Positions 1-30,524 of a DNA stretch of 31,427 nt are shown piece after piece. The translations under genes and the position numbers were made by a program. The DNA is taken from positions 1 to 31,427 of the IMG/VR virus record IMGVR_UViG_2667527789_000018; one strand, written 5' to 3'. Below the pieces are notes generated by a model, which did not search any database, was not told where the DNA came from, and worked only from the letters and a program-made list of their open reading frames with translations. Source of the stretch: a virus (taxonomy: Duplodnaviria > Heunggongvirae > Uroviricota > Caudoviricetes). Each line of letters begins with the position of its first letter. Positions within the stretch are counted from its first letter, which is position 1.

Positions 1-1011
1 TTATAACGTCACTCCGCCTTTTAGTGGATTCAGAGCGACGGCATTTTGCAGATAGTCAGGCGCAAGGTGCGCATAGGCCATCGTCTGCTGAATGCTCGCA
101 TGTCCCAGAATCTGTTGCAGTGCGATTATATTGCCCCCATTCATCATGAAATGGCTTGCGAATGTATGCCGCAGGATGTGGGTTGCCTGATTGGGTGGTA
201 TATCAGGTTTCACTCTGCGTAAAATCCCGCAAAATTTCTCATAATCAACTTTGAATAATTTGGCGCTGGCCTCCTCTTTAACTTTTTTCTCCAGTTCCTC
301 AGAAATCGGCACGGTTCGCTTTTTACCGTTTTTGGTTTTCAGGAAGGTAACCCTGCAATTTGTAATCTGTGCTGGTTTTAGCGTGGCAACTTCCGTCCAT
401 CTTCCTCCAGTGCTCAGACATAAAAGCGCGACAAGTAAGTCATCACCAGCCAAAACATTTAACAGTTTTTCGATTTCTGCTTTTTCCAGGAACGTCATTT
501 CAGGGTTGGCCTCCGCCAGTGGCGGCAGTCCGTGAATTGGGTGTTGCCCGGAAAATTCATCCAATTGAATTAATTTTGTGAACATGCCGGATAATCTGTA
601 CATGTCACGGTTTATCGTTGAGGCACTGATACCATCACGTAGTCGCATGGAACGATAATCCATCAAAGCCCTTTTGCTCATCCTGCTCACTGGTATATCA
701 CCTATGCCGCTGATGGTTTTGAGTAGATGATTAAACTCTTTTGTTCCATGCTCGTGGTTTTGCCCGTGATATTTCCACCAGATGTCCAGCAACTCACTCA
801 AAGTCCGGCGGTCTGCTCGCTGGCCTCCCCATTCTTTCTGACTGGCATTGGCGATTGTGTATCGCTCAAATGCTAGTGCTTCAGCTTTTCTTTCGAATTT
901 CCTGCGGATGCGTTTTCCGTCGCGACCGCGAGGTCTAATGTCCACTTCATAGCGACCATCATCGAGCTTCTTAATTGCCATAAGAAAGCCCTCCGGCGCT
1001 GTATTCACCAT
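1..1011 (-). CDS. int: tyrosine integrase (P2 Int family)
   Basis: 336-aa ORF ending at a TAA whose complement is bases 1-3; C-terminal tyrosine-recombinase-like region (HILRHTFASH...GHASIQQTMAYAHL); located at prophage end beside repressor. An alternative ATG at 981 (MAIKKLDDGRYEV) has a better SD (GGAGGG), so the true start may be 981. Confidence 0.9.
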   Translation of the reverse strand: MVNTAPEGFLMAIKKLDDGRYEVDIRPRGRDGKRIRRKFERKAEALAFERYTIANASQKEWGGQRADRRTLSELLDIWWKYHGQNHEHGTKEFNHLLKTISGIGDIPVSRMSKRALMDYRSMRLRDGISASTINRDMYRLSGMFTKLIQLDEFSGQHPIHGLPPLAEANPEMTFLEKAEIEKLLNVLAGDDLLVALLCLSTGGRWTEVATLKPAQITNCRVTFLKTKNGKKRTVPISEELEKKVKEEASAKLFKVDYEKFCGILRRVKPDIPPNQATHILRHTFASHFMMNGGNIIALQQILGHASIQQTMAYAHLAPDYLQNAVALNPLKGGVTL

Positions 1012-1050
1012 CTTGGTAGCAAATGGTGAAAATGTAATCTTTATATAGAG

Positions 1051-1344
1051 TTAGCCAATCCTTTTCGCGGAGTGGTTGGACTCTGTTGACTCTGGCCCAA
1101 TGTGCGCGAGAGCCGGTGCGATTTGTCCTGCGTCCGGCGCGGTTTTATCTGTCATAAGCCATAGAGCATATTTTTGGAATGTGGGATGCATAGTGATTTT
1201 TAGCAAAGCTGTGCCACCGGGTTCAAAGTTTCCTCCTTCATATTTTTTAAGTGTGCTTAGCGGTAACTCTATGATTTCACAGAATTTTGATTGGCTTAGC
1301 CCTTCAGCCTCACGCAAGGCCTTAATCTTTTCGCTTAATTTCAT
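1051..1344 (-). CDS. C: immunity repressor, P2 C-like HTH protein
   Basis: 97-aa ORF with N-terminal HTH-like segment (LSQSKFCEIIELPLSTLKKY); divergent from the early operon, directly upstream of int as in P2. Confidence 0.85.
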   Translation of the reverse strand: MKLSEKIKALREAEGLSQSKFCEIIELPLSTLKKYEGGNFEPGGTALLKITMHPTFQKYALWLMTDKTAPDAGQIAPALAHIGPESTESNHSAKRIG

Positions 1345-1465
1345 TTGACATGGTGCCTATATAGGGACTAAATTCCCTCAAAACTGGAACCTATATAGGT
1401 TCCATTGATTTGAGAATAAACCAGCGTCTAAACGGTTTTGAGTGGTTTAGAAAGGGCTGGATCCT
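1345..1465. promoter_or_regulatory. immunity switch region: divergent early/repressor promoters with two palindromic operator-like sites
   Basis: TTGACA at 1345-1350; palindrome CCTATATAGG at 1356-1365 and again at 1390-1399, the second embedded in a perfect 18-bp palindrome GGAACCTATATAGGTTCC (1386-1403); sits between divergent C and cox. Confidence 0.6.
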
Positions 1466-1753
1466 ATGAGGGTACCATATATGGACGCTGAAAATTATGT
1501 GATTCAGTATCCGCTTGATGCGGTTCATGTGGATAAATTTGCTGATTTATTAGGGAAGCCAAAGACAGCCGTCAGTGAAATGGTGAAGGCAAATAAATTA
1601 CCAATTATTGAATTGCGTGATCCTTGCAAACCGAAGGCTCGTGCCGGTGAAAAATGGGTTTTCATTCCTGAGTTTAATCGCGCTGTACGTGAGGCGTTTT
1701 ATAACCGACCGGTTGAACAGCGTGATGCATGGCTTTTGTGGATGGGGTTGTGA
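1466..1753 (+). CDS. cox: Cox-like excisionase / early transcriptional regulator
   Basis: 95-aa first gene of rightward early operon; C-terminus RDAWLLWMGL resembles what I recall of P2 Cox; position identical to P2 cox. Confidence 0.7.
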   Translation: MRVPYMDAENYVIQYPLDAVHVDKFADLLGKPKTAVSEMVKANKLPIIELRDPCKPKARAGEKWVFIPEFNRAVREAFYNRPVEQRDAWLLWMGL

Positions 1754-1755
1754 TT

Positions 1756-1926
1756 ATGAATGAGCCGCGTTGTATTGCTCAGTTATTGCGTAACGAAAGC
1801 CCCAGGGCGATTGACTTCACCATCACCCACGGGAAGGGGCGCAAGGGAATCATTATCCGCACCAAAAAACAGAGTCCGTTAAAAAAGGCTCTGACCTTTC
1901 TGAAAAGCCGGAGGGCCTGGAAATGA
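1756..1926 (+). CDS. small early-operon protein (P2 orf78 position)
   Basis: ATG at 1756 three nt after cox stop; 56 aa; ends with ATGA overlap into next gene. The longer tracked ORF 1729-1926 overlaps cox. Confidence 0.5.
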   Translation: MNEPRCIAQLLRNESPRAIDFTITHGKGRKGIIIRTKKQSPLKKALTFLKSRRAWK

Positions 1927-2423
1927 CAGTGATGACGCTCAATCTCGTTGAAAAACAGCCAGCAGCTATGCGCCGGATAATTGGTAAGCATCTTGCCGTT
2001 CCTCGCTGGCAGGATACATGTGATTATTATAATCAGATGATGGAGCGCGAACGGCTAACAGTTTGCTTTCATGCGCAGTTAAAACAACGTCACGCAACGA
2101 TGCGTTTTGAAGAAATGAACGACGTCGAACGTGAACGGCTGGTTTGTGCAATTGATGAATTGCGTGGGGCATTCTCAAAACGCCGTCAGGTTGGCGCAAG
2201 TGAGTATGCATATATTAGTTTTTTAACAGTCAGTCAGCGTCGTACTTTATTTATGCATGCCGGATTGACTGAAAAAGAATTCAACCAGCCATACTGGCGA
2301 ATTAATGAAGAGTCATGTTACTGGCGTGATGCTTTATTTCGTGCATTACGTGAATTATTCAGCCTGTTTGAGTATGCACCGACAATTCTGACGTCGGTAA
2401 AACCAGAGCAATATCTGCATTAA
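1923..2423 (+). CDS. B: P2 gpB-like replication accessory protein (putative)
   Basis: 166 aa, the length I recall for P2 B; position cox-orf78-B; start codon overlaps previous stop (ATGA). Confidence 0.55.
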   Translation: MTVMTLNLVEKQPAAMRRIIGKHLAVPRWQDTCDYYNQMMERERLTVCFHAQLKQRHATMRFEEMNDVERERLVCAIDELRGAFSKRRQVGASEYAYISFLTVSQRRTLFMHAGLTEKEFNQPYWRINEESCYWRDALFRALRELFSLFEYAPTILTSVKPEQYLH

Positions 2424-2444
2424 GTAATTAACCAGAGTTTTTAA

Positions 2445-2472
2445 CGCACTTAATCGTGCGGGGCTTCTTTTT
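2445..2472 (+). terminator. weak hairpin plus T-tract after B (possible partial terminator)
   Basis: CGCAC-TTAATC-GTGCG stem-loop (2445-2460) followed by GGGCTTCTTTTT; short stem, so low confidence. Confidence 0.25.
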
Positions 2473-2486
2473 GCCTGGAGAAAGTT

Positions 2487-2711
2487 ATGCATACAGTTTC
2501 TGAAAATCAGTGCGGTATATACGCATTACTGCTGCAACAGGCCAGAACCGAAGCACAGGCCGACGCTGCGACGCGCTTTTCTTCTCATCTTGATGCCATG
2601 ATTCGCCACATCACAAAGGCGGAGTTATCCCGCGTGGAGATAGTCGAGCTGCTCAGTCAGGAGTCGGAAAAATTTCACAATATCGGATTGTCTCGCGGGG
2701 AGGTGCTTTGA
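2487..2711 (+). CDS. hypothetical early protein (P2 orf80 position)
   Basis: 74-aa ORF with strong SD (GGAGAAAG) 5 nt upstream of ATG 2487; stop overlaps next start (TGATG). Confidence 0.65.
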
Positions 2712-3013
2712 TGTCCTGTTCTCGTTCAGTTGTATTATTGAATAACGCCTTAAAAATCGCCGTTATGAAAAATGGCGATTTGTCTCTTATTCAACTTGGT
2801 CTTGATAAAGAAAAACGCGAAATAACTGAGTCTGTTATCGCGATTTATCAGAACGAATTAAACCTCCTGTCTGATGTGGTCAATTTACTTGTTAAACGCG
2901 CTGTGTTTCACAAGCAAATCTCCTCCGTGGATGAACTGACGAAATTAACGGCAGAAATCGCCAGCTATTGCGCTGATGAATTTAAAAACCTTAACGACAA
3001 AAGGAACTGGTAA
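2711..3013 (+). CDS. hypothetical early protein (P2 orf81 position)
   Basis: ATG at 2711 overlapping upstream stop; about 100 aa; stop overlaps next start (TAATG). Tracked ORF starts at TTG 2708. Confidence 0.65.
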   Translation: MSCSRSVVLLNNALKIAVMKNGDLSLIQLGLDKEKREITESVIAIYQNELNLLSDVVNLLVKRAVFHKQISSVDELTKLTAEIASYCADEFKNLNDKRNW

Positions 3014-3237
3014 TGCCGGACAACGTAGATTTTATTCAGGAACAACAGGCTGAATTACTGGAGCGCCAGATTAACGCGGCAAGGGTAAAACATTGCGGTG
3101 CTTCTGCGCTGGTTTGCGAAGAGTGTGACGCGCCAATACCTGCTGCCCGTCGTGCGGCTTATCCGTCAGCCACGCGTTGTGTTTCCTGTCAGTCAGTCTT
3201 TGAAGCAAAAAACAAACATTACCGGAGAACGGCATGA
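3013..3237 (+). CDS. TraR/DksA-family C4 zinc-finger protein (P2 orf82 position)
   Basis: 74 aa with CEEC-x17-CVSC four-cysteine motif typical of phage TraR/DksA-like zinc fingers. Confidence 0.75.
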   Translation: MPDNVDFIQEQQAELLERQINAARVKHCGASALVCEECDAPIPAARRAAYPSATRCVSCQSVFEAKNKHYRRTA

Positions 3238-3509
3238 GTATTCGTATTGAAATTGGCGAACGTTATGTCGTTACCAGTGACAGCTTTCAGTTTATTCTCC
3301 ACGAGAAAAAGAGAGCGGAAAGCGGTAAAAACGCCGGTCAGGAATGGCTGGCGGTGGTTGGTTATTACCCGAAATTAAGCCAGCTCGTTTCCGGCCTGAT
3401 GCATCACGATATTCTGACCGGAAGCGCAAAATCTTTTGCCGATTTAAACGCGCAGGTTGAGCAACTCAGCAAGCGTTGTTCAAAGGCTTTTGGCTCACAT
3501 GGCCGTTAA
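3234..3509 (+). CDS. hypothetical early protein (P2 orf83 position)
   Basis: 91-aa ORF; its stop overlaps the start of the replication gene (ATGGCCGTTAA). Confidence 0.6.
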   Translation: MSIRIEIGERYVVTSDSFQFILHEKKRAESGKNAGQEWLAVVGYYPKLSQLVSGLMHHDILTGSAKSFADLNAQVEQLSKRCSKAFGSHGR

Positions 3510-5784
3510 AGCCTCCGGGCGTTTTGTCCCTCCGTCAGCATTTGCCGCAGGCACCGGTAAGGCGTTTACTGGTGCTTATGCATGGAACGCGCCACGCGAG
3601 GCTGTCGGGCGCGAAAGACCCCTTACACGTGACGAGATGCGTCAGGTGCAAGGTGTTTTATTCACGATTAACCGCCTGCCTTACTTTTTGCGCTCGCTGT
3701 TTACTTCACGCTATGACTACATCCGGCGCAATAAAAGCCCGGTGCACGGGTTTTATTTCCTCACATCCACTTTTCAGCGTCGTTTATGGCCGCGCATTGA
3801 GCGCGTGAATCAGCGCCATGAAATGAACACCGACGCGTCGTTGCTGTTTCTGGCAGAGCGTGACCATTATGCGCGTCTGCCGGGGATGAATGACAAGGAA
3901 CTGAAAAAGTTTGCCGCCCGTATCTCATCGCAGCTTTTCATGATGTATGAGGAACTCTGCGATGCATGGGTTGATGCACATGGCGAGAAAGAATCGCTGT
4001 TTACGGATGAGGCTCAGGCGCATCTGTATGGTCATGTTGCTGGCGCTGCACGAGCTTTCAATATTTCCCCTCTCTACTGGAAAAAATACCGTAAAGGACA
4101 GATGACCACGAGGCAGGCATATTCTGCCATTGCCCGTCTGTTTAACGATGAGTGGTGGACTCATCAGCTTAAAGGTCAGCGTATGCGCTGGCATGAGGCG
4201 TTACTGATTGCTGTCGGGGAGGTGAATAAAGACCGTTCTCCTTATGCCAGTAAACATGCCATTCGTGATGTGCGTGCGCGCCGCCAGGCAAATCTGGAAT
4301 TTCTTAAATCGTGTGACCTTGAAAACAGGGAAACCGGCGAGCGCATCGACCTTATCAGTAAGGTGATGGGAAGTATTTCTAATCCTGAAATTCGCCGGAT
4401 GGAGCTGATGAACACCATTGCCGGTATTGAGCGTTACGCCGCCGCAGAGGGTGATGTGGGGATGTTTATCACGCTGACCGCGCCGTCAAAGTATCACCCG
4501 ACACGTCAGGTCGGAAAAGGCGAAAGTAAAACCGTCCAGCTAAATCACGGCTGGAACGATGAGGCATTTAATCCAAAGGATGCGCAGCGTTATCTCTGCC
4601 GCATCTGGAGCCTGATGCGCACGGCATTCAAGGATAATGATTTACAGGTCTACGGTTTGCGTGTCGTCGAGCCACACCACGACGGAACGCCGCACTGGCA
4701 TATGATGCTTTTTTGTAATCCACGTCAGCGTAACCAGATTATCGAAACCATGCGTCGCTACGCGCTCAAAGAGGATGGCGACGAAAGAGGAGCCGAGCGA
4801 AACCGTTTTCAGGCGAAACACCTTAACCGGGGCGGTGCTGCGGGGTATATCGCGAAATACATTTCAAAAAATATCGACGGCTATGCACTGGATGGTCAGC
4901 TCGATAACGATACCGGCAGACCTCTGAAAGATACTGCCGCGGCTGTTACTGCATGGGCGTCAACGTGGCGCATCCCGCAATTTAAAACGGTTGGTCTGCC
5001 GACAATGGGGGCTTACCGTGAACTACGCAAATTGCCTCGCGGCGTCAGCATTGCTGATGAGTTTGACGAACGCGTCGAGGCTGCACGCGCTGCCGCAGAC
5101 AGTGGCGATTTTGCGTTGTATATCAGTGCGCAGGGTGGGGCAAATGTCCCGCGCGATTGTCAGACTGTCAGGGTCGCCCGTAGTCCGTCGGATGAAGTTA
5201 ACGAGTACGAGGAAGAAGTCGAGAGAGTGGTCGGCATTTACGCGCCGCATCTCGGCGCGCGTCATATTCATATCACCAGAACGACGGACTGGCGCATTGT
5301 TCCGAAAGTGCCGGTCGTTGAGCCTTTGACTTTAAAAAGCGGCATCGCCGCGCCTCGGAGTCCTGTCAATAACTGTGGAATGCTCACCGGTGGTGATACT
5401 TCGTTACCGGCTCCCACACCTTCTGAGCACGCCGCAGCAGTGCTTAATCTGGTTGATGACGGAGTTATCGAATGGAATGAGCCGGAGGTCGTGAGGGCGC
5501 TCAGGGGCGCATTAAAACACGGCCTGAGAACACCTAATCGTCAGCAAAGAAACGGAAGCCCGTTAAAACAGCATGAAATAGCGCCATCGGCCAGACTGAC
5601 CCGGTCGGAACGAATGCAAATCACCCGTATCCGTGTTGACCTTGCTCAGAACGGTATCAGGCCGCAGCGATGGGAGCTTGAGGCGCTGGCGCGTGGCGCG
5701 ACCGTAAATTATGACGGGAAAAAATTCACGTATCCGGTCGCTGATGAGTGGCCGGGATTCTCAACGGTAATGGAGTGGATATAA
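3499..5784 (+). CDS. A: rolling-circle replication initiator endonuclease gpA
   Basis: First ATG at 3499 (MAVKASGRF) gives 761 aa, the P2 A length I recall; HUH-type motif HWHMMLF and tandem-tyrosine motif YIAKYISK seen in the translation. The tracked ORF begins at an upstream TTG (3457). Confidence 0.9.
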   Translation: MAVKASGRFVPPSAFAAGTGKAFTGAYAWNAPREAVGRERPLTRDEMRQVQGVLFTINRLPYFLRSLFTSRYDYIRRNKSPVHGFYFLTSTFQRRLWPRIERVNQRHEMNTDASLLFLAERDHYARLPGMNDKELKKFAARISSQLFMMYEELCDAWVDAHGEKESLFTDEAQAHLYGHVAGAARAFNISPLYWKKYRKGQMTTRQAYSAIARLFNDEWWTHQLKGQRMRWHEALLIAVGEVNKDRSPYASKHAIRDVRARRQANLEFLKSCDLENRETGERIDLISKVMGSISNPEIRRMELMNTIAGIERYAAAEGDVGMFITLTAPSKYHPTRQVGKGESKTVQLNHGWNDEAFNPKDAQRYLCRIWSLMRTAFKDNDLQVYGLRVVEPHHDGTPHWHMMLFCNPRQRNQIIETMRRYALKEDGDERGAERNRFQAKHLNRGGAAGYIAKYISKNIDGYALDGQLDNDTGRPLKDTAAAVTAWASTWRIPQFKTVGLPTMGAYRELRKLPRGVSIADEFDERVEAARAAADSGDFALYISAQGGANVPRDCQTVRVARSPSDEVNEYEEEVERVVGIYAPHLGARHIHITRTTDWRIVPKVPVVEPLTLKSGIAAPRSPVNNCGMLTGGDTSLPAPTPSEHAAAVLNLVDDGVIEWNEPEVVRALRGALKHGLRTPNRQQRNGSPLKQHEIAPSARLTRSERMQITRIRVDLAQNGIRPQRWELEALARGATVNYDGKKFTYPVADEWPGFSTVMEWI

Positions 5785-5895
5785 TGGCAAAAATTCACGA
5801 GATCTTAGATAGTTTCGTACTGTATATATTTAGTTGTTACTTGCAGTTTGGTATTGTTTGCCATGGTTGTTTGTTAAGTGCTTTAAAGGTGAGGA

Positions 5896-7734
5896 ATGAG
5901 CGAGTTCGATGTTTTTTCTATTTCAGTTGATGATTTTAAAAAAAGTGAGTACGCCAGTATATTGTTACCACCAAGAAGCCATTCTTATTTTGAAATGGAA
6001 TCTTATTTTTTTCAGTTGTTGTCATTTTATAAGCAAAAAAAAGATGTGAGTTCTTGGAGGGTTTGCTATTTATTACGTTCGTTATTTAGTTTAAAATTTT
6101 CTAAGTCTGGTGATATTATCGACTTTGAGTCTAAAATCATTCTCTATCCTAAGCGAGGTTATAGACCTTCAGATTACAAGGATAATTATTTAACCATATT
6201 AACTTGTATTAAAGAAAATACTGACAACCCTTATATTATATCTAGGGTGTGTGATGTTTTATGGATAAATAACCGTAAGGATATAGATTCTGCTAATAAA
6301 GCAATAGAGTCATATGCTCTAATGATTAATGATGCTTGTGATACTTTGTTAGAAAAAAAGGAATCAGGTGACATCCATGTTTTTGATGTCGTTGACTGCT
6401 TGGATAGAGGTATTACAATATCGCGCATGCTTATTGGCAGGAAAAAACAACTGCAAGGAGGGATAGTTGACTCGACGTTAAGGCTATATCATATATTAAT
6501 AGATTCTAGTATATTTATCGGTGTTTTAAGAATTTCTGAAATTCTTTATAAGAATAATTTATTGTGCCCCTTACAATTGGCTAAGAATGCAGAAAAGATA
6601 GCTGATGAGCATTGTGGAGCTTCTTATTTTGATGCTGTGAAAAAATTGTTTTATTTTGCGTCTGAATTATATGTTAAAAATGATATGGAAGAGCAAGGAA
6701 GAAGGTGCAAAATGAAAGCGACAGAAATAACATTGGCTCAATTTGAACAGTCTTCATCTCCAACATTGAAGGCTCATTGGCTAAGAGTTGCTCTTGGGGA
6801 ATTTAGAGCGATTGGTGGAATGAGTGAAAGGATTAAAGAGATTAAAGAGGAATTAAATTCTATTCGAGATCAAATCAATGATGAAATGTATTCCTTTGCA
6901 ATACCAATGGATCTTAGTGATGTTATCGCTCAGAAAGAGCATATTTATAATCAATTAAATTTCTCAGAAATAATTAAAAAATTAATCTCTAGATTTAAGG
7001 TTGTAAGTGCCAGTGAGATTATGGAAAGAGCTCGCTCTGATGCTAAGAGATATTTTTTTGTTAATGTGAGTGATACGGTTTTTTATGATGACAGAGGACG
7101 CGTTGTGGCAAGGCAACCACCTTTAGATTCTGCTGGGGATATAAGTCTAGATGATGCCTGTGTAAATTATTTAAGAACTAGTAATATTGAGCATCAGTTT
7201 TATGTTTATGGTGAGTTTGAAGTTGTTAGGCAAAGAGTGTTGTCTAGGTATTCATTAAATGAGAATACATTTGACCCAATCTCACAACAAAGTCTATTTG
7301 TTCCTCCTGGGTATGCGGAAATATTTTCTTTAGGATTTCTTAAGCTTTGGCAGGGGGATTATGTGTCTGCCTGTTATTTGTTGTTGCCGCAGTTGGAGAA
7401 TTCAATTAGATGGATTTTAGAATTAAGAAGAAAAGAAACAACGAAAATAGATGTGTCACTTTTTGAGGAGGCTACTAGTCTATCTCAAATGCTTGCAAAT
7501 TATAAGAGTGAAATGGAAGGTATTTTTGGGAGTGATCATGTATTGACTATGGATTTATTGTTCAATATGAAAGGTGGTGCTGCAATTAGACACACGATGG
7601 CTCATGGCAGGTATACTGTAAATCATTGTTATCAACCAACTTCAGTTTTTGCCTGTGTCTTTATCTTTTATTTAACTTGTTTGCCTTTATTTAGTGTATG
7701 GGAAGATAAAGTTGAACCTTATCTGACTGATTAA
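5896..7734 (+). CDS. AT-rich accessory (cargo) protein of unknown function, 612 aa; candidate anti-phage defence protein
   Basis: ATG 5896 preceded by AGGTGAGGA; about 32% G+C in a 60-nt sample versus about 57% in phage genes; occupies the tin/old position of P2; no P-loop; C-terminal R-x4-H motif (AIRHTMAHGRY). Confidence 0.8.
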   Translation: MSEFDVFSISVDDFKKSEYASILLPPRSHSYFEMESYFFQLLSFYKQKKDVSSWRVCYLLRSLFSLKFSKSGDIIDFESKIILYPKRGYRPSDYKDNYLTILTCIKENTDNPYIISRVCDVLWINNRKDIDSANKAIESYALMINDACDTLLEKKESGDIHVFDVVDCLDRGITISRMLIGRKKQLQGGIVDSTLRLYHILIDSSIFIGVLRISEILYKNNLLCPLQLAKNAEKIADEHCGASYFDAVKKLFYFASELYVKNDMEEQGRRCKMKATEITLAQFEQSSSPTLKAHWLRVALGEFRAIGGMSERIKEIKEELNSIRDQINDEMYSFAIPMDLSDVIAQKEHIYNQLNFSEIIKKLISRFKVVSASEIMERARSDAKRYFFVNVSDTVFYDDRGRVVARQPPLDSAGDISLDDACVNYLRTSNIEHQFYVYGEFEVVRQRVLSRYSLNENTFDPISQQSLFVPPGYAEIFSLGFLKLWQGDYVSACYLLLPQLENSIRWILELRRKETTKIDVSLFEEATSLSQMLANYKSEMEGIFGSDHVLTMDLLFNMKGGAAIRHTMAHGRYTVNHCYQPTSVFACVFIFYLTCLPLFSVWEDKVEPYLTD

Positions 7735-7895
7735 TGGAAGTTGATTTAGGTATTTTGGCATTTATCTTTCTGCGTGCAATATGTGCATGGTTTTGCATGT
7801 GCCGGAGTTGCATGTTCCGGCCGTGCGTCCGCCAGAACGGGCGTGGCTCAAAAGCGGTATTGCACCTGCATTAAAAACACCCCATGAAGCGGGCG

Positions 7896-22593: not shown

Positions 22594-22603
22594 AATCTGA
22601 CAG
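22594..22603. repeat. left copy of 10-bp inverted repeat AATCTGACAG flanking the G-FI cargo
   Basis: AATCTGACAG at 22594-22603; its exact reverse complement occurs at 23493-23502. Confidence 0.5.
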
Positions 22604-22762: not shown

Positions 22763-23356
22763 ATGTTTACTAAGCGACGATTAAAAAATATTAACTGGGA
22801 GGCAAGTTCAGTGATTCTTGCTATGGTTCTCTTTGTTGGAAATATATTTTATACAAATCATCGTGATGATATAAACATGGAGGCTGAGAGAGACAGTATC
22901 AGAACAATGTTTGCATATGAAATCGCTAATAACCATCGCGCTCTCACTTTTCTTGATAAAACGAGACATATTGGCTTTGACGAAAATTCGGAGCATTTTG
23001 TTGGCGAGCCTTTTGCCATTAATGTCAAATCATTAGGGGGACCTCGCTTACAGATTGCATTAAACCAGACTGATAAAGTGTTTAAATCCTACTTCGGCGA
23101 ATTAAGTAAGCTTGATAAAGAGGATGTTACTCTTCTTATGGACTATTACCATGAGCAAAGCATCCTGCTGGAGCGTGTAAAATCTACGTTACAGAAGATG
23201 AAAAGTGGTAATGATATTAAAGTTGATATTGATGGTTACTTATTAGAAGAACACTTCATGAATGAGCTTAATCTTTCTAATATATTGCTTAAACGCTATA
23301 GCTATTTATTATCACAACACGCTAAAGAACATAAAACAAAAGATTTACATAATTGA
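22763..23356 (+). CDS. AT-rich accessory membrane-anchored protein, 197 aa, in the Z/fun hotspot; candidate superinfection-exclusion or defence protein
   Basis: About 32% G+C in a 60-nt sample; N-terminal hydrophobic helix (SSVILAMVLFVGNIFY) then a charged soluble domain; occupies the G-FI intergenic slot where P2 carries Z/fun. Confidence 0.7.
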   Translation: MFTKRRLKNINWEASSVILAMVLFVGNIFYTNHRDDINMEAERDSIRTMFAYEIANNHRALTFLDKTRHIGFDENSEHFVGEPFAINVKSLGGPRLQIALNQTDKVFKSYFGELSKLDKEDVTLLMDYYHEQSILLERVKSTLQKMKSGNDIKVDIDGYLLEEHFMNELNLSNILLKRYSYLLSQHAKEHKTKDLHN

Positions 23357-23492
23357 TAATCTGCTAATGGTTATTCATGGGGTAACTATGTTTTATATGT
23401 AATCCAGCTCAGATGAATTATTGATTCTGGATAATAACCGCAGAGCGGCATATACCCTGACAGGCAAATGTCCGCTTCTTGCTCAAAGCAGA

Positions 23493-23502
23493 CTGTCAGA
23501 TT
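23493..23502. repeat. right copy (inverted) of 10-bp repeat AATCTGACAG
   Basis: CTGTCAGATT at 23493-23502 is the reverse complement of 22594-22603; additional CTGWCAG copies at 23457-23463 and 23526-23532. Confidence 0.5.
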
Positions 23503-23544
23503 TGATAACTTTTGGGCTATGTAAACTGTCAGTCGGAAAATGAG

Positions 23545-23562
23545 TGTGTACAAATCAGGACA
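23545..23562 (+). promoter_or_regulatory. candidate Ogr-dependent late promoter element (TGT-N12-ACA dyad) for the FI operon
   Basis: TGT(23545-23547)-N12-ACA(23560-23562), about 130 bp upstream of the FI start; P2 late promoters carry a TGT-N12-ACA dyad near -55. Confidence 0.35.
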
Positions 23563-23685
23563 GGCGGGCGAATTGCCCGCATTTTCTTTATCTGTTGTTT
23601 CATCCACTGACCAGCCAGGTCAAATAGCGTCTCATGCTCTGCACAACAGAAAATAGTTGCACCCATTAACCACGGAGTTAAACGG

Positions 23686-24876
23686 ATGAGTGACTATCAT
23701 CACGGCGTGCAGGTGCTGGAGATTAACGACGGCACCCGCGTCATTTCCACCGTATCCACGGCCATTGTCGGCATGGTCTGCACGGCCAGCGATGCAGATG
23801 CGGAAACCTTCCCCCTCAATAAACCGGTGCTGATTACCAATGTGCAGAGCGCAATTGCAAAGGCCGGTAAAAAAGGCACGCTGGCGGCATCGTTGCAGGC
23901 CATCGCTGACCAGTCAAAACCGGTCACCGTTGTCGTGCGCGTGGAAGACGGCACCGGCGACAATGAGGAAACGAAACTCGCGCAGACCGTTTCCAATATC
24001 ATCGGCACCACCGACGAAAACGGTCAGTACACCGGACTAAAAGCCCTGCTGGCGGCGGAGTCGGTAACCGGTGTTAAACCGCGTATTCTCGGTGTGCCGG
24101 GACTGGATACCAAAGAGGTGGCTGTTGCACTGGCATCCGTCTGTCAGAAGCTGCGCGCTTTCGGGTATATCAGCGCATGGGGCTGTAAAACCATTTCCGA
24201 GGTGAAAGCCTACCGTCAGAATTTCAGCCAGCGTGAGCTGATGGTCATCTGGCCGGATTTCCTCGCATGGGATACGGTCACCAGTACCACCGCCACCGCG
24301 TATGCCACCGCCCGTGCGCTGGGGCTGCGCGCTAAAATCGACCAGGAGCAGGGCTGGCATAAAACGCTGTCCAATGTCGGGGTGAACGGTGTTACCGGCA
24401 TCAGCGCCTCTGTATTCTGGGATTTGCAGGAGTCCGGTACTGATGCTGACCTGCTTAACGAGTCAGGCGTCACAACGCTGATTCGCCGCGACGGTTTCCG
24501 CTTCTGGGGTAACCGTACCTGCTCTGATGACCCGCTGTTCCTCTTTGAAAACTACACCCGCACCGCGCAGGTGCTGGCCGATACGATGGCTGAGGCGCAC
24601 ATGTGGGCGGTGGACAAGCCCATCACCGCAACGCTGATTCGCGACATCGTTGACGGCATCAATGCCAAATTCCGAGAGCTGAAAACAAACGGCTATATCG
24701 TGGATGCGACCTGCTGGTTCAGCGAAGAATCCAACGATGCGGAAACCCTCAAGGCCGGAAAACTGTATATCGACTACGACTATACACCGGTGCCTCCTCT
24801 TGAAAATCTGACCCTGCGCCAGCGTATTACCGATAAATACCTGGCAAATCTGGTCACCTCGGTTAACAGCAATTAA
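23686..24876 (+). CDS. FI: contractile tail sheath protein gpFI
   Basis: 396 aa; GGAG SD; followed by the tail tube gene. Confidence 0.92.
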   Translation: MSDYHHGVQVLEINDGTRVISTVSTAIVGMVCTASDADAETFPLNKPVLITNVQSAIAKAGKKGTLAASLQAIADQSKPVTVVVRVEDGTGDNEETKLAQTVSNIIGTTDENGQYTGLKALLAAESVTGVKPRILGVPGLDTKEVAVALASVCQKLRAFGYISAWGCKTISEVKAYRQNFSQRELMVIWPDFLAWDTVTSTTATAYATARALGLRAKIDQEQGWHKTLSNVGVNGVTGISASVFWDLQESGTDADLLNESGVTTLIRRDGFRFWGNRTCSDDPLFLFENYTRTAQVLADTMAEAHMWAVDKPITATLIRDIVDGINAKFRELKTNGYIVDATCWFSEESNDAETLKAGKLYIDYDYTPVPPLENLTLRQRITDKYLANLVTSVNSN

Positions 24877-24888
24877 GGAGCCTGACCG

Positions 24889-25407
24889 ATGGCAATGCCG
24901 CGCAAACTCAAGTTAATGAACGTCTTTCTGAACGGCTACAGCTATCAGGGCGTCGCGAAGTCCGTCACGCTACCAAAACTGACCCGTAAGCTCGAAAACT
25001 ATCGCGGTGCGGGGATGAACGGCAGCGCACCGGTAGACCTCGGCCTTGATGACGATGCGCTGTCAATGGAGTGGTCGCTCGGTGGCTTCCCGGATTCGGT
25101 TATCTGGGAGCTTTACGCCGCAACCGGTGTGGATGCCGTACCGATTCGTTTTGCAGGCTCTTACCAGCGCGACGATACCGGCGAAACGGTGGCCGTCGAG
25201 GTGGTCATGCGTGGACGTCAGAAAGAAATCGACACCGGCGAGGGCAAACAGGGAGAAGACACCGAGTCGAAAATCTCCGTGGTCTGCACCTATTTCCGGC
25301 TGACGATGGACGGTAAGGAGCTGGTCGAAATCGACACCATCAACATGATAGAGAAGGTGAACGGCGTCGACCGGCTGGAGCAACACCGTCGCAATATCGG
25401 CCTGTGA
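24889..25407 (+). CDS. FII: tail tube protein gpFII
   Basis: 172 aa; AGGAG SD. Confidence 0.92.
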   Translation: MAMPRKLKLMNVFLNGYSYQGVAKSVTLPKLTRKLENYRGAGMNGSAPVDLGLDDDALSMEWSLGGFPDSVIWELYAATGVDAVPIRFAGSYQRDDTGETVAVEVVMRGRQKEIDTGEGKQGEDTESKISVVCTYFRLTMDGKELVEIDTINMIEKVNGVDRLEQHRRNIGL

Positions 25408-25463
25408 TTTTCATCCGGTCAGCCTGGCTGACCGGTTAACCCCGATTCAGAAGTGAGAAAACC

Positions 25464-25739
25464 ATGAACAAAGAAAACGTCATTACCCTGGACAAGCCGG
25501 TCAAACGTGGTGAGCAGGTTATCGAACAGGTCACGCTGATGAAACCTAATGCCGGGACGCTGCGCGGTGTCAGTCTGGCTGCGGTCGCAAACTCCGAAGT
25601 CGATGCACTGATTAAAGTGCTGCCGCGCATGACCGCACCGATGCTGACCGAGCAGGAAGTCGCCGCGCTGGAACTGCCTGACCTTGTGGCGCTGGCCGGT
25701 AAGGTGGTCGGTTTTTTGTCGCCGAACTCGGTGCAGTGA
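25464..25739 (+). CDS. E: tail assembly chaperone gpE
   Basis: 91 aa; contains slippery T-TTT-TTG heptamer near its 3' end. Confidence 0.85.
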   Translation: MNKENVITLDKPVKRGEQVIEQVTLMKPNAGTLRGVSLAAVANSEVDALIKVLPRMTAPMLTEQEVAALELPDLVALAGKVVGFLSPNSVQ

Positions 25740-25891
25740 CGTTTCCGAAAAATCTCTCGGTCGATGATCTGATGGCGGATGTGGCAGTGATATTTCACTG
25801 GCCGCCATCAGAACTGTATCCCATGAGCCTGACCGAACTCATCACATGGCGCGAAAAGGCGCTCCGGCGAAGCGGAAACACGAATGAGTAA
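25464..25891 (+). CDS. E': gpE+E' fusion made by -1 programmed ribosomal frameshift at T-TTT-TTG (25712-25718)
   Basis: Hand translation of the -1 frame from 25718 is open to TAA at 25889-25891 (...AVTFPKNLSVDDLMADVAVIFHWPPSELYPMSLTELITWREKALRRSGNTNE), giving 142 aa in total and overlapping the T start. Confidence 0.65.
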
Positions 25892-28331
25892 CAATGTAAA
25901 ATTACAGGTATTGCTCAGGGCTGTTGACCAGGCATCCCGCCCGTTTAAATCCATCCGCACAGCGAGCAAGTCGCTGTCGGGGGATATCCGGGAAACACAA
26001 AAATCACTGCGCGAGCTGAACGGTCAGGCATCCCGTATTGAGGGGTTCCGCAAGACCAGTGCACAGCTCGCCGTGACTGGTCAGGAACTGAAAAAAGCCA
26101 GACAGGAAGCCGCAGCACTGGCTGTCCAGTTTAAAAATACTGAACGACCAACAAATGCACAGGCAAAGGCAATGGAAGCCGCGCGTAAAAATGTGTCGGA
26201 GTTACAGGCGAAATATAACAGCCTGAGATTGTCGGTACAGCGCCAGCGTCAGGAACTGAGTCAGGCGGGTATTAATACCCGTAATCTGGCGCATGATGAA
26301 CGAGGGCTGAAAAACCGTATCAGTGAAACCACCGTACAGCTTAACCGGCAGCGTGACGCGCTGGCGCGTGTCAGTGCGCAACAGGCAAAACTTAACGCAG
26401 TAAAACAGCGTTATCAGGCCGGAAAGGAACTGGCCGGAAATATGGCCTCAGTGGGCGCTGTCGGTGTGGGGATTGCTGCTGCGGGAACGATGGTCGGAGT
26501 TAAGCTGCTGATGCCCGGTTATGAGTTTGCGCAGAAAAACTCAGAATTGCAGGCCGTGCTAGGAGTGGCAAAAGACTCCGCCGAAATGACCGCACTCCGC
26601 AAGCAGGCGCGCCAGCTCGGCGACAATACCGCAGCCTCGGCAGATGATGCAGCCGGTGCACAGATTATCATTGCGAAAGCGGGTGGAGATGCTGCGGCTA
26701 TTCAGGCGGCAACGCCGGTCACGCTGAATATGGCACTGGCGAATCAGCGGTCGATGGAAGAAAACGCGCAACTGTTGCTGGGGACTAAGGCATCCTTTCA
26801 ACTGTCAAATGATGATGTCAGCCATGTGGGCGACGTGTTGTCGGCAACGATGAATAAGTCGGCGGCTGATTTTCAGGGACTCAGTGATACACTGACTTAC
26901 CTCGGGCCGGTTGCGAGGACTGCAGGTGTAAGTCTTGAGCAGGCAGCAGCCATGACAGGTGTGCTGCATGACAATAACATCAGGGGGTCAATGGCGGGGA
27001 CGGGTAGCAGTGCCGTTGTCACCCGATTACAGGCACCGACTGGAAAAGCATGGGATGCACTCAAAGAGCTTGGCGTTAAAACCTCGGACAAAAAGGGAAA
27101 TATGCGTCCGTTGTTCACCATTCTGAAAGAGATTCAGGCCAGCTTTGATAAACACAAGCTGGGAACGTCTCAGAAGGGGGAATACCTTAAAACCATTTTT
27201 GGTGAGGAAGCCCTGAAATCAGCGAACGTTTTACTGGCAGCGGCAGCAAGCGGAAAACTGGATAAGCTGACCGCCACGCTGAAAGCCTCGGACGGTAAAA
27301 CGGAAGAGCTGGTTAAAATCATGCAGGATAACCTCGGCGGTGACTTTAAGGAGTTTCAGTCCGCTTATGAGGCGGTGGGGACTGACCTGTTTGACCAGCA
27401 GGAAGGCGCGCTGCGTAAGCTCACGCAGACGGCCACAAAGTATGTGTTAAAACTCGACGGCTGGATCCAGAAAAACAAATCACTGGCGTCAACCATCGGC
27501 ATCATTGCCGGTGGCGCGCTGGCGCTGACTGGCATCATCGGTGCAATTGGTCTTGTAGCCTGGCCGGTTATCACCGGCATCAATGCCATCATTGCGGCAG
27601 CAGGCGCAATGGGGGCAGTCTTCACGACGGTTGGTAGTGCTGTTATGACCGCCATCGGGGCTATTAGCTGGCCGGTTGTGGCCGTGGTGGCCGCAATTGT
27701 CGCCGGGGCGTTGCTTATCCGTAAATACTGGGAGCCTGTCAGCGCATTCTTTGGCGGTGTGGTTGAAGGGCTGAAAGTGGCATTTGCGCCGGTGGGAGAA
27801 CTGTTCACGCCACTGAAGCCGGTGTTTGACTGGCTGGGTGAAAAGTTACAGGCCGCGTGGCAGTGGTTTAAAAACCTGATTGCCCCGGTCAAAGCCACCC
27901 AGGACACCCTGAACCGTTGCCGTGACACGGGCGTCATGTTCGGGCAGGCACTGGCTGACGCGCTGATGCTGCCGCTTAATGCGTTCAACAAACTGCGCAG
28001 CGGTATTGACTGGGTACTGGAAAAACTCGGTGTTATCAACAAAGAGTCAGACACACTTGACCAGACCGCCGCAAGGACTCATGCCGCCACGTATGGCACC
28101 GGCGGTTATATTCCGGCGACCAGCTCTTATGCAGGCTATCAGGCTTATCAGCCGGTCACGGCACCGGCTGGTCGCTCTTATGTGGACCAGAGTAAAAACG
28201 AATATCACATCAACCTGACGGGCGGTACTGCGCCGGGGACACAGCTTGACCGCCAGTTACAGGATGCGCTCGAAAAATACGAGCGGGATAAACGTGCGCG
28301 CGCCCGTGCCAGCATGATGCATGACGGTTAA
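25884..28331 (+). CDS. T: tail tape measure protein gpT
   Basis: 815 aa; coiled-coil N-terminal half, Gly/Ala-rich hydrophobic central segment. Confidence 0.92.
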   Translation: MSNNVKLQVLLRAVDQASRPFKSIRTASKSLSGDIRETQKSLRELNGQASRIEGFRKTSAQLAVTGQELKKARQEAAALAVQFKNTERPTNAQAKAMEAARKNVSELQAKYNSLRLSVQRQRQELSQAGINTRNLAHDERGLKNRISETTVQLNRQRDALARVSAQQAKLNAVKQRYQAGKELAGNMASVGAVGVGIAAAGTMVGVKLLMPGYEFAQKNSELQAVLGVAKDSAEMTALRKQARQLGDNTAASADDAAGAQIIIAKAGGDAAAIQAATPVTLNMALANQRSMEENAQLLLGTKASFQLSNDDVSHVGDVLSATMNKSAADFQGLSDTLTYLGPVARTAGVSLEQAAAMTGVLHDNNIRGSMAGTGSSAVVTRLQAPTGKAWDALKELGVKTSDKKGNMRPLFTILKEIQASFDKHKLGTSQKGEYLKTIFGEEALKSANVLLAAAASGKLDKLTATLKASDGKTEELVKIMQDNLGGDFKEFQSAYEAVGTDLFDQQEGALRKLTQTATKYVLKLDGWIQKNKSLASTIGIIAGGALALTGIIGAIGLVAWPVITGINAIIAAAGAMGAVFTTVGSAVMTAIGAISWPVVAVVAAIVAGALLIRKYWEPVSAFFGGVVEGLKVAFAPVGELFTPLKPVFDWLGEKLQAAWQWFKNLIAPVKATQDTLNRCRDTGVMFGQALADALMLPLNAFNKLRSGIDWVLEKLGVINKESDTLDQTAARTHAATYGTGGYIPATSSYAGYQAYQPVTAPAGRSYVDQSKNEYHINLTGGTAPGTQLDRQLQDALEKYERDKRARARASMMHDG

Positions 28332-28345
28332 GGAGGTGACGAAAA

Positions 28346-28825
28346 ATGATGCTCGCGTTAGGTATGTTTGTTTTTATGCGCCAGACGCTGCCACACCAGA
28401 CCATGCAGCGTGAATCAGATTATCGCTGGCCGTCAAATTCCCGTATCGGTAAACGGGATGCCTACCAGTTTCTCGGTGTGGGTGAGGAAAACATTACGCT
28501 TGCCGGTGTGCTTTATCCTGAACTGACCGGCGGAAAGCTGACGATGACCACGCTCAGACTGATGGCAGAGGAAGGCCGGGCGTGGCCGTTGCTGGATGGC
28601 ACCGGCATGATTTACGGCATGTATGTCATCAGCAGGGTGAGTGAAACAGGGAGTATTTTCTTTGCAGACGGCACACCCCAGAAAATTGATTTTACGCTGT
28701 CACTCACCCGCGTGGATGAATCACTGGCCGCGCTTTATGGCGATATCGGTAAACAGGCGGAATCGCTCATCGGTAAGGCTGGCAGTATGGCGACTAAATT
28801 CACGGGTATGACGGGGGCGGGATAA
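28346..28825 (+). CDS. U: tail protein gpU
   Basis: 159 aa; GGAGG SD; synteny T-U-D. Confidence 0.88.
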   Translation: MMLALGMFVFMRQTLPHQTMQRESDYRWPSNSRIGKRDAYQFLGVGEENITLAGVLYPELTGGKLTMTTLRLMAEEGRAWPLLDGTGMIYGMYVISRVSETGSIFFADGTPQKIDFTLSLTRVDESLAALYGDIGKQAESLIGKAGSMATKFTGMTGAG

Positions 28826-29988
28826 TGCTGGATGCGCTGACATTTGATGCAGGCAGTACGCTGACGCCGGATTACATGCTGATGCTCGACAGCAGGGATA
28901 TTACCGGCAATATCAGCGACCGTCTGATGAGCATGACCCTGACGGATAACCGGGGCTTTGAGGCTGACCAGCTTGATATTGAACTGAACGATGCCGACGG
29001 GCAGGTCGGGCTGCCGGTTCGTGGCGCTGTCCTGACGGTGTATATCGGCTGGAAAGGTTTTGCCCTGGTATGCAAAGGGAAATTTACCGTTGATGAGGTT
29101 GAACACCGGGGCGCGCCGGATGTGGTCACCATCCGCGCCCGGAGTGCAGATTTTCGCGGGACGCTCAATTCCCGCCGGGAAGGCTCCTGGCATGACACCA
29201 CGCTCGGTGCGATTGTTGAGGCGATAGCCTCCCGTAACAGGCTGGAAGCCCGTGTTGCTCCGTCACTGGCCGGAATTAAAATCCCGCACATCGACCAGTC
29301 GCAGGAGTCTGATGCGAAATTCCTGACCCGTCTTGCTGAACGCAACGGCGGTGAGGTGTCGGTAAAAATGGGAAAACTGCTGTTTCTCAAAGCGGGGCAG
29401 GGGGTGACTGCCAGCGGTAAAAAAATCCCGCAGATTACCATCACCCGCAGCGATGGCGACCGTCATCATTTTGCGATTGCTGACCGCGGAGCCTACACAG
29501 GTGTAACGGCAAAGTGGTTACACACCAAAGACCCGAAACCGCAAAAGCAGAAGGTAAAACTGAAACGCAAAAAGAAAGAGAAACACCTGCGCGCACTGGA
29601 GCACCCGAAAGCAAAACCGGTCACGCAGAAGAAAGCGCCTAAAGTACCGGAAGCGCGCGAAGGTGAATACATGGCCGGTGAGGCTGATAACGTTTTTGCC
29701 CTGACCACGGTATATGCCACGAAAGCGCAGGCCATGCGCGCCGCTCAGGCGAAGTGGGATAAACTGCAACGGGGTGTTGCGGAGTTCTCCATCAGCCTGG
29801 CTACCGGTCGGGCAGATATTTACACGGAAACACCGGTTAAAGTGTCAGGCTTTAAGCGCGTCATAGACGAGCAGGACTGGACAATCACTAAGGTGACACA
29901 TTTTCTGAATAATAGCGGCTTCACGACGTCCTTAGAGCTTGAGGTCAGGCTTTCTGATGTGGAGTACGAAACAGAAGATGATGAGTGA
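28825..29988 (+). CDS. D: tail protein gpD
   Basis: 387 aa; last gene of the FI operon; Lys-rich internal segment. Confidence 0.88.
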   Translation: MLDALTFDAGSTLTPDYMLMLDSRDITGNISDRLMSMTLTDNRGFEADQLDIELNDADGQVGLPVRGAVLTVYIGWKGFALVCKGKFTVDEVEHRGAPDVVTIRARSADFRGTLNSRREGSWHDTTLGAIVEAIASRNRLEARVAPSLAGIKIPHIDQSQESDAKFLTRLAERNGGEVSVKMGKLLFLKAGQGVTASGKKIPQITITRSDGDRHHFAIADRGAYTGVTAKWLHTKDPKPQKQKVKLKRKKKEKHLRALEHPKAKPVTQKKAPKVPEAREGEYMAGEADNVFALTTVYATKAQAMRAAQAKWDKLQRGVAEFSISLATGRADIYTETPVKVSGFKRVIDEQDWTITKVTHFLNNSGFTTSLELEVRLSDVEYETEDDE

Positions 29989-30069
29989 TGCTTTTATTTT
30001 ATCTGTTTGTTTTATAAGGATAAATTAACTAAAATGGCACCATCAACAAAACCGGAAGAGGTGCTCGCG

Positions 30070-30288
30070 ATGTTTCATTGTCCTTTATGCCAGCATGCCG
30101 CACATGCGCGTACAAGCCGCTATATCACTGACACGACAAAAGAGCGTTATCATCAGTGCCAGAACGTGAATTGCAGTGCCACGTTCATCACTTATGAGTC
30201 GGTACAGCGATACATCGTGAAGCCGGGAGAAGTCCACGCCGTAAGGCCGCACCCGTTGCCGTCAGGGCAGCAAATTATGTGGATGTGA
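30070..30288 (+). CDS. ogr: late gene transcriptional activator Ogr (zinc finger)
   Basis: ATG at 30070 (MFHCPLCQHAAH...) gives 72 aa with CPLC...C-x4-C zinc-binding cysteines; the tracked ORF begins upstream at 30007. Confidence 0.9.
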   Translation: MFHCPLCQHAAHARTSRYITDTTKERYHQCQNVNCSATFITYESVQRYIVKPGEVHAVRPHPLPSGQQIMWM

Positions 30289-30298
30289 TCACAAAAAT

Positions 30299-30326
30299 AG
30301 CCCCTCAGTTGAGGGGCTTTATTTAT
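30299..30326 (+). terminator. rho-independent terminator after ogr
   Basis: AGCCCCTC-AGTT-GAGGGGCT hairpin (30299-30318) followed by TTATTTAT. Confidence 0.75.
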
Positions 30327-30331
30327 GGTCG

Positions 30332-30351
30332 ATGTGGACGCTATGTGGACG
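30332..30351 (+). repeat. tandem direct repeat ATGTGGACG x2 (candidate integrase arm-type binding sites of attR)
   Basis: ATGTGGACG at 30332-30340 and 30343-30351 with 11-bp periodicity, between ogr and host DNA. Confidence 0.45.
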
Positions 30352-30416
30352 GTGGTTGATATAAATCCATTTATATCATCAGGTTAGGTGCTTTTTTGTG
30401 ACACCATCCCTGTCTT

Positions 30417-30443
30417 CCCCCACATGATGTGGGGGTTTTTTTT
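30417..30443 (+). terminator. strong rho-independent terminator (possibly the end of a 3'UTR-derived sRNA of the upstream host gene)
   Basis: CCCCCAC-ATGAT-GTGGGGG hairpin followed by an 8-nt T run, 80 bp upstream of fieF. Confidence 0.75.
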
Positions 30444-30524
30444 ATCCTCAATTTGCCTGCTGCTTAATGCATTGCAGATGATTTGCTTCCGTTATACTAG
30501 CGTCAGTTGATAGCGGGAGTATTT

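Follow-up and report, generated by a model that had tools for sequence, protein, structure and literature searches.

The window analysed here, a stretch of 31,427 bases (IMG/VR record IMGVR_UViG_2667527789_000018), contains a P2-like prophage and the host gene fieF. It aligns from end to end with the genome of E. coli RM11911 (NZ_CP044313.1, positions 3542602-3574028) with 92 mismatches and no gaps, at 99.7% identity, and in RM11911 the prophage is located between cpxP and fieF. By its gene content and alignments, the element is a Peduovirus (P2 family) prophage of the L-413C type rather than P2 proper. It is very probably a complete and apparently viable temperate myovirus, integrated by a tyrosine integrase at the cpxP terminator, upstream of fieF.

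Phage backbone and attachment sites

The P2-type gene order, int-C-cox-B-A / cos / Q-P / O-S / V-G / FI-D / ogr, is conserved in the element. The features outside the int-C-cox module and the two accessory hotspots are as follows:

1756-3509, plus strand: early operon, with orf78 (1756-1926), B (1923-2423), orf80 (2487-2711), orf81 (2711-3013), orf82 (3013-3237) and orf83 (3234-3509); 95-100% amino acid (aa) identity to P2
3499-5784, plus strand: A, endonuclease of rolling-circle replication, 761 aa, with 98% identity to P2 A
7896-7914: cos, with the 19-nucleotide (nt) cohesive end GGCGAGGCGGGGAAAGCAC, identical to P2 cosL and cosR
8084-9118, minus strand: Q (portal), 98.5% identical to P2
9118-10890, minus strand: P (large terminase), 99.5% identical to P2
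10954-10982: Ogr site serving both of the divergent late promoters, pP and pO, identical to the annotated P2 site
11064-17264, plus strand: O operon, with O, N, M, L, X, Y (holin), K (endolysin), lysA, lysB, lysC, R and S; 94-100% identical to P2
16099-16389, plus strand: lysC, 96 aa, with the lipobox LCAGC kept, overlapping lysB and R
17265-17330: S-V junction of 66 bp, without orf30, one mismatch to the L-413C junction
17331-22541, plus strand: V operon, with V, W, J, I, H and G; V, W, J and I 97.6-99.3% identical to P2
19757-22012, plus strand: H, 751 aa
20351-21952, plus strand: mosaic distal part of H, no nucleotide match to P2 or L-413C
22014-22541, plus strand: G, 92% identical to P2
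23686-29988, plus strand: F operon, with FI, FII, E, E+E', T, U and D; 88.7-100% identical to P2
25464-25739, plus strand: E; E+E' runs to 25891
25712-25718, plus strand: slippery site TTTTTTG (T6G), 21-nt context identical to P2
30070-30288, plus strand: ogr, encoding the zinc-finger activator of the late genes, 72 aa, with 100% identity to P2 Ogr
30400-30446: attR core, 47 bp, GACACCATCCCTGTCTTCCCCCACATGATGTGGGGGTTTTTTTTATC, duplicating the cpxP terminator; the prophage ends here on its right side

The 42 annotated P2 proteins were compared with the window by tblastn. All of the 35 backbone genes that the element has in common with P2 (the essential genes together with orf78 and orf80-83) are intact, full-length open reading frames (ORFs), and 32 of them are 86-100% identical to P2, whereas int, C and cox reach only 43-52%. 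Full length and gapless alignments at 88.7-100% identity were obtained for Q, P, O, N, M, L, X, Y, K, lysA, lysB, lysC, R, S, V, W, J, I, G, FI, FII, E, T, U, D, ogr, B, orf78, orf80-83 and A, with the packaging and head genes Q, P, O, N, M and L at 98-99.5%; among the structural, lysis and replication genes, H is the exception to this range. Every one of the 40 gene models is a single intact ORF with an ATG start, and the compact coupling of P2 is retained, in overlaps of 1, 4, 8, 11 or 13 nt or in abutting stop and start codons. The V operon yields Pfam matches to Phage_tail_fib, Phage_fiber_2 and Caudo_TAP.

The 41 nt around the P2 nick site, in the replication origin (ori) near position 5357 within A, are identical to P2. 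The simulated -1 product E+E' agrees with P2 at 141 of 143 alignment positions (142 residues and the stop), and frameshifting is predicted. In the region of the pF promoter (~23590-23685), the window and L-413C have the same sequence, beginning about 100 bp upstream of FI. Downstream of ogr, sequence reading together with the P2 annotation places a terminator hairpin at 30300-30317 and tandem TGTGGAC arm-type Int sites at ~30334-30351.

Among the closest known phages is L-413C (a Yersinia/Escherichia phage, Peduovirus L413C, NC_004745). It is collinear with the element in the blocks 1-5801, 7896-20350 and 23478-30446, at 93-97.5% nucleotide identity, and in a fourth block, 21953-22614 (the tip of H and G), at 85.6%; the alignment breaks only at hotspot 1, at distal H and at hotspot 2. 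The type species P2 (NC_001895) has the same gene order, cos, ori and E/E' site, and an Ogr protein that is 100% identical. However, P2 gives no megablast match over 1-1754 (int, C and cox), and its genes orf30, fun(Z), orf91, tin and old are not present in the element. P2 orf30, which lies between S and V in P2, has no tblastn match in the window; L-413C is likewise without orf30.

A preliminary description of this DNA, made from the letters alone, had presented it as an apparently functional P2-family prophage in which every P2 core gene is intact, with the expected length and coupling, and in which the E/E' frameshift site and the embedded lysC are present. The tblastn comparison and the ORF models bear this out: there is no detectable lesion, and the element is collinear with the plaque-forming phage L-413C. 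The whole-genome alignment that the same description had proposed, carried out with both P2 and L-413C, revealed no large rearrangement. Its statement that the differences from P2 are confined to the two hotspots and the tail fibre is correct for those three regions, yet it is exact only in relation to L-413C. With respect to P2 itself, int, C and cox also differ (52, 43 and 43% identity), orf30 is absent and the tape-measure protein T is only 88.7% identical.

The window opens at the stop codon of int, which leaves attL and the P' arm outside it; from RM11911, the left att copy is expected at about -162 to -116 relative to the start of the window. A script comparison of both flanks of the RM11911 element found a perfect 47-bp direct repeat, GACACCATCCCTGTCTTCCCCCACATGATGTGGGGGTTTTTTTTATC, which includes the cpxP terminator hairpin. 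The same 47-bp core is present in the attP of L-413C, and the homology to L-413C stops at 30446, within 1 bp of the right end (30445) given in the preliminary description. The excised genome would be about 30.56 kb in RM11911 coordinates, versus 30.73 kb for L-413C. The cpxP-fieF interval is a documented insertion site of P2-like phages, occupied by 'Wphi1' in E. coli W (PMC3032704). A tRNA scan and an Rfam scan of the window gave no matches and no known noncoding RNA; since the tRNA scan was empty, the integrase is not a tRNA-targeting one.

The tail-fibre protein H has 751 aa, versus 669 aa in P2. Its residues 1-351 correspond to P2 H 1-395 at 86% identity, with 44 aa missing; a middle part of ~196 aa has no P2 counterpart; and the last 204 aa correspond to P2 H 473-669 at 62%. 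L-413C H is longer (913 aa), and the distal parts of the two proteins are unrelated. At the DNA level, distal H is a patchwork, 83% identical to Peduovirus P22H4 and 9W and 77-78% identical to Yersinia Mu-like phages, while the DNA of the tip of H and of G is 94-95% identical to SfMu or a P2-like phage. This pattern, which agrees with the earlier remark that the tail-fibre C-terminus differs from P2, is that of the usual mosaicism of tail-fibre tips and chaperones. The mosaic tip predicts a receptor specificity different from that of P2.

Several other observations concern the backbone and its surroundings. First, of the 92 mismatches between the window and the RM11911 prophage, 77 are concentrated in Q, P, O and N (8281-13028), and only 14 fall in 13029-31427; the cluster resembles a patch that P2-like phages, co-resident or related, have exchanged by recombination. 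Second, RM11911 has several further P2-like A/Q matches, in 4 places, suggesting polylysogeny with P2-like elements, and it carries an IS621 copy (L001, 1784-2764) 3 kb from the left end of the prophage. Third, T (25884-28331) is gapless, and its protein is only 88.7% identical to P2 and 89.1% to L-413C. Because the neighbouring genes are at 96-100%, T comes from another lineage. Fourth, the S-V junction contains a hairpin (17297-17318) with a GC-rich 8-bp stem, GCCGCCGG-TATGAC-CCGGCGGC. This hairpin lacks a T-tract and is located 12 nt upstream of V; it is also present in L-413C and may be an attenuator or an RNA-stability element. Finally, a minus-strand ORF at 23386-23607 (73 aa, GTG start) matches phrog_11095 (2e-24). 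It was probably over-called, because it lies largely in DNA homologous to the unannotated P2 intergenic region upstream of FI.

Cargo genes in the two hotspots

The two hotspots and their genes are as follows:

5802-7866: hotspot 1 (A-cos; the old/tin/orf91 locus of P2), GC content ~0.33, no P2 or L-413C homology
5896-7734, plus strand: cargo 1, 612 aa, GC content 0.33, with DUF7380 at aa 8-184, a helical-repeat middle and a divergent DUF4209/HEPN region at aa ~500-587
22615-23477: hotspot 2 (G-FI; the Z/fun locus of P2), GC content ~0.34
22763-23356, plus strand: cargo 2, 197 aa, GC content 0.34, with an N-terminal transmembrane (TM) helix at aa ~14-31 and a predicted all-helical C-terminal domain

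Both hotspots are thus occupied, as had been noted before, by one gene each; beyond these two genes, they contain just short overlapping ORFs without support. In L-413C, the A-cos hotspot holds orf91 and an opposite-strand gene of 330 aa in place of cargo 1, and the G-FI hotspot holds an opposite-strand gene of 259 aa in place of cargo 2. Both hotspots are known from the literature as reservoirs for anti-phage genes (PMC9122126). A second study, in which 6 of 8 P4 hotspot loci of unknown function protected against phages, also mentions hotspots among the tail genes of P2 and at the primase-att site of P4 (PMC13586616). Each cargo gene has its own Shine-Dalgarno sequence and promoter-like site.

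Cargo 1 matches Pfam DUF7380 (2.5e-26, aa 8-184), phrog_5183 and, over aa 8-599, the PADLOC candidate PDC-S39 (1.4e-73), as a single gene in the hotspot. A profile search retrieved 3708 cluster representatives, most of them 600-640 aa long and aligned over their whole length. Among 41 diverse relatives sampled (19-52% identity), DUF7380 and PDC-S39 were found in all 41 and a C-terminal DUF4209 in 30 (E <= 0.001, best 2.7e-14). The sole invariant residues in this sample are R171, A299, G401, E501, R565 and H570, and R565-HTMA-H570 constitutes the HEPN Rx4-6H signature, placed within the C-terminal helical domain. Anantharaman et al. 2013 placed DUF4209 (the C6orf70 family) in the HEPN superfamily (PMC3710099).

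The protein is not new. It is 87.9% identical, over the full 612 aa, to ORF612 of P2-EC46 (AM157366), which occupies the same A-cos slot and was deposited with a 2006 survey of that locus. It also belongs to P2-hotspot family no. 55, 'DUF4209', for which Table S5 of Rousset et al. 2022 (PMC9122126) lists 76 occurrences. Cargo 1 is an allelic variant of the already known ORF612/PDC-S39 family. In the protein collection searched, the cluster with the exact cargo 1 sequence has 77 member sequences on 5 contigs, and at >=92% identity the locus is present in 21 of 5426 complete E. coli genomes, the set used for all genome counts given here.

Distant relatives have been found between integrases and a QatABCD system. 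Another, next to a GmrSD gene, belongs to a decayed P2-like prophage, whose A-Q slot it occupies. This prophage lies on a metagenomic contig (L008, 4146-5940 and 9087-10818); its A gene is in three fragments and its terminase is truncated, and its A-Q slot contains an intact cargo 1 homologue and a 303-aa gene, with the GmrSD-like gene downstream.

With HEPN abortive-infection RNases, cargo 1 shares the invariant R-x4-H motif and a conserved upstream Glu, and RNase activity is predicted; it differs from them by the addition of a large N-terminal DUF7380 and a TPR-like helical region. The most likely role of cargo 1 is that of a sensor-coupled HEPN RNase acting by abortive infection. A phage product would be sensed by DUF7380 together with the helical repeats, and this would release a dimeric HEPN RNase, upon which the infection would be aborted.

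Several results weigh against this assignment. The top match of the C-terminal piece is PF13910 (DUF4209), at 14.8 bits versus a cut-off of 22.3; close homologues (P0043, P0044 and P0045) do reach that cut-off. The AF2 model is all-helical with a predicted local distance difference test (pLDDT) score of 74.6 and low confidence around the Rx4H motif, and fold searches retrieved only TPR-like helical repeats and no HEPN. The HEPN call is therefore a sequence-based one. In addition, a different DUF4209 protein from the same hotspot (pFR103, 'Putative HEPN') was tested with 8 phages by Rousset et al. and is not in their validated list. A separate observation concerns aa 581-602 (7636-7701), which form a hydrophobic C-terminal helix, VFACVFIFYLTCLPLFSVW, with a mean Kyte-Doolittle value of 2.2; Rousset et al. 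flag it as '1 TM', and it may instead be the buried last HEPN helix. A sequence search of the PDB with cargo 1 produced chance-level matches only.

Cargo 2 has no Pfam, PADLOC or NCBIfam match, and its sole family match is phrog_3829, of unknown function. Some NCBI records label it 'lysogenic conversion protein', a name behind which NCBIfam has no model. Its hydrophobic segment, aa 14-31, is flanked by a charge of +3 on the N-terminal side and -3 on the C-terminal side, which suggests an orientation with the N-terminus inside and the C-terminus outside. Among 28 homologues (53-93% identity), the most conserved stretch is the membrane-proximal NWEASSVILAM...F. As the TM segment is the most conserved part, the helix is probably more than an anchor. 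A sequence search of the PDB gave chance-level matches only. A resemblance to a four-helix bundle (MCP-like) had E = 0.49 and was not used.

Thirteen Peduovirus records, among them AC1, P24B2 and PhiR44_1, have the gene in their G-FI slot, and it is present in 203 E. coli genomes. Like P2 Z/fun and other G-FI morons, it is a single AT-rich gene in this slot; P2 Fun(Z), however, has 528 aa, is encoded on the opposite strand and has no sequence similarity to cargo 2. Outside the P2-like phages, a 62%-identical homologue is located directly after the P4-type primase of a P4-like satellite in Pantoea ananatis (JMJL01000004.1; L005, 4001-4600), and a truncated homologue is carried by an Enterobacter plasmid, adjoining IS91 and a VapC module. 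[quoted passage not shown] Because of the Pantoea homologue, the cargo 2 family is common to these phages and satellites at a distant level. Its distribution fits a mobile accessory gene rather than a tail component.

Cargo 2 is most likely an inner-membrane protein of superinfection exclusion or abortive infection, although confidence in the exact mechanism is low. Tentatively, it could represent a new kind of small inner-membrane anti-phage protein that blocks DNA entry or kills infected cells, a possibility that we rate somewhat below even. Such a protein would have a cytoplasmic N-terminus, a single, unusually conserved TM helix and a periplasmic helical bundle, and it would circulate among the P2-like tail-gene hotspot, the P4-like primase-att hotspot and plasmids. 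The lack of informative homology counts against these assignments, and so does the poor structural model of cargo 2, which is all helical with a pLDDT of 60; a BFVD fold search with it found no significant match.

Taken together, the two cargo genes most likely provide anti-phage functions expressed in the lysogen, although their promoter-like sites are no commoner than in shuffled sequence, a point that counts against such expression. It is rather unlikely that they are not anti-phage genes and are instead morons with a role in host fitness or in surface 'lysogenic conversion', or addiction modules. The label of cargo 2 in NCBI, its lack of a match in defence databases and the failure of the related DUF4209 gene to be validated against 8 phages are all consistent with such roles, and both cargo genes are candidates without a validated phenotype. 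On the other hand, A-cos and G-FI are both known as hotspots of defence genes; the family of cargo 1 is listed by PADLOC as a defence candidate, with an invariant HEPN catalytic motif and defence-island neighbours; cargo 2 recurs in accessory slots of P2-like phages, in a P4-like satellite and on a plasmid; and most of the uncharacterized P4 hotspot loci mentioned above were protective.

Viability and control of lysogeny

An intact appearance does not by itself distinguish a viable phage from a cryptic, domesticated prophage that is kept for its cargo genes and gives neither excision nor infectious particles. Decayed P2-like elements that keep their hotspot genes do exist, both on the metagenomic contig L008 and in the literature (PMC13586616). 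The attL of the present element is beyond the window. P2-type prophages are non-inducible and can persist for a long time. Nevertheless, we consider a cryptic prophage improbable here. All 40 genes are free of frameshifts, truncations and insertion sequences, the regulatory and cis-acting sites are identical to those of viable phages, the proteins, at 86-100% identity to P2 or L-413C, match the expectation for genes under purifying selection, and the att repeats in the near-identical RM11911 are perfect over 47 bp. A reading as a tailocin or domesticated tail was rejected, since the element has the capsid, terminase, replication and integration genes as well as cos. Three points should be set against a complete and viable phage. 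Release of phage by the element is predicted from the sequence, and missense defects may be present; attL and the P' arm were seen solely in the 99.7%-identical RM11911 genome; and the complete E. coli genomes of the collection reach at best 99.6-99.7% identity to the window, none of them 100%.

The regulatory module of the element comprises the following features:

1-981, minus strand: int, tyrosine integrase of L-413C type, 326 aa (Pfam Int_N and Phage_integrase)
1051-1344, minus strand: C, immunity repressor, 97 aa (HTH_3 only, no peptidase domain; phrog_147)
1345-1465: C-cox switch region, in which a TTGACA -35 hexamer abuts the C start, with two CCTATATAGG copies
1466-1753, plus strand: cox, excisionase and Pc repressor, 95 aa (Pfam Phage_Cox, 1.2e-23)

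Int is 52% identical to P2 Int and differs by 2 aa from L-413C Int; C is 43% identical to P2 C and 100% identical to L-413C C; and Cox is 43% identical to P2 Cox, with one aa difference from L-413C Cox. Over the entire int-C-cox module, nucleotide identity is 99.0-99.9% to 18 phage records, including L-413C, P2_AC1, P24B2, FSLSP004 and R18C. Given these low identities to P2, the element should have an immunity and an attachment site different from those of P2. The element falls outside the P2 immunity group, with C, Cox and Int divergent and a different att core, and groups with L-413C.

The two CCTATATAGG copies, at ~1356-1365 and ~1391-1400, are candidate C operators, in a layout parallel to P2 Pe/O1/O2. 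Three positions of the switch region (1356, 1373 and 1402) differ from L-413C, all within or close to the first CCTATATAGG copy and a putative -10 hexamer that reads CTAAAT in the window and CTAAAC in L-413C; other phage records are 99.9% identical over 1-1760.

By analogy with the biology of P2, the 97-aa C protein would shut off the early promoter in the lysogen by acting at the two CCTATATAGG repeats. Upon derepression, Cox, B and A would be made, and A would nick ori and start rolling-circle replication. Ogr would then activate the four late operons, and terminase would cut at cos. Release would occur only spontaneously or via derepression by a P4-type satellite.

P2 is the textbook example of a non-inducible phage; its relative coliphage 186 (Eganvirus), which has the general P2-like late genes, is SOS-inducible. 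The window is without a homologue of 186 CI, Apl, CII, Fil, Dhr, Tum or Orf97 and without a p95-type LexA site. None of these seven proteins gave a meaningful tblastn match in the window, the best for Tum being a stretch of 25 aa at E = 0.02, antisense to E'. No promoter-proximal or intergenic LexA box was found, as all seven CTG-N10-CAG matches in the window fall inside genes.

The short repressor with a helix-turn-helix and no peptidase domain, and the lack of a tum-like gene, had both been recognized in the preliminary description, together with the likelihood that the prophage is not SOS-inducible; all three assessments stand, the last as a reasonable one. The prophage is probably not SOS-inducible, given the HTH-only C, the absence of Tum and of an intergenic LexA-like box, and the non-inducibility of P2. 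With neither a self-cleavage domain in C nor an antirepressor of the Tum type, no response to SOS would be expected. Induction by SOS through a route not visible as Tum or LexA, for which the small ORFs of unknown role (orf78, orf80, orf81 and orf83) might be invoked, is very improbable, since C has 97 aa with an HTH only, neither Tum nor DinI gives a match, CTG-N10-CAG occurs only inside genes and the same early genes are found in P2, itself non-inducible.

Prevalence and significance

Elements of this class are very common in E. coli: the A/Q flanks were matched in 2157 of the 5426 complete genomes, and >=80% of the late region in 1157, or about one genome in five. The element described here is an ordinary member, whose insertion site, immunity type and two cargo families are all already catalogued. 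As a prophage it is of little importance, the mosaic being present at 99.6-99.7% identity in RefSeq genomes. Its value is a modest one, as a clean, intact natural carrier of two candidate defence genes, the DUF7380-HEPN gene of the PDC-S39 family and the gene for the 197-aa membrane protein. The second of these belongs to a family found both in P2-like phages and in a P4-like satellite, types of element that were reported not to exchange close defence genes. If the tentative reading of cargo 2 is true, the membrane protein and the HEPN RNase of cargo 1 would provide the host with two mechanistically distinct candidate immunities.

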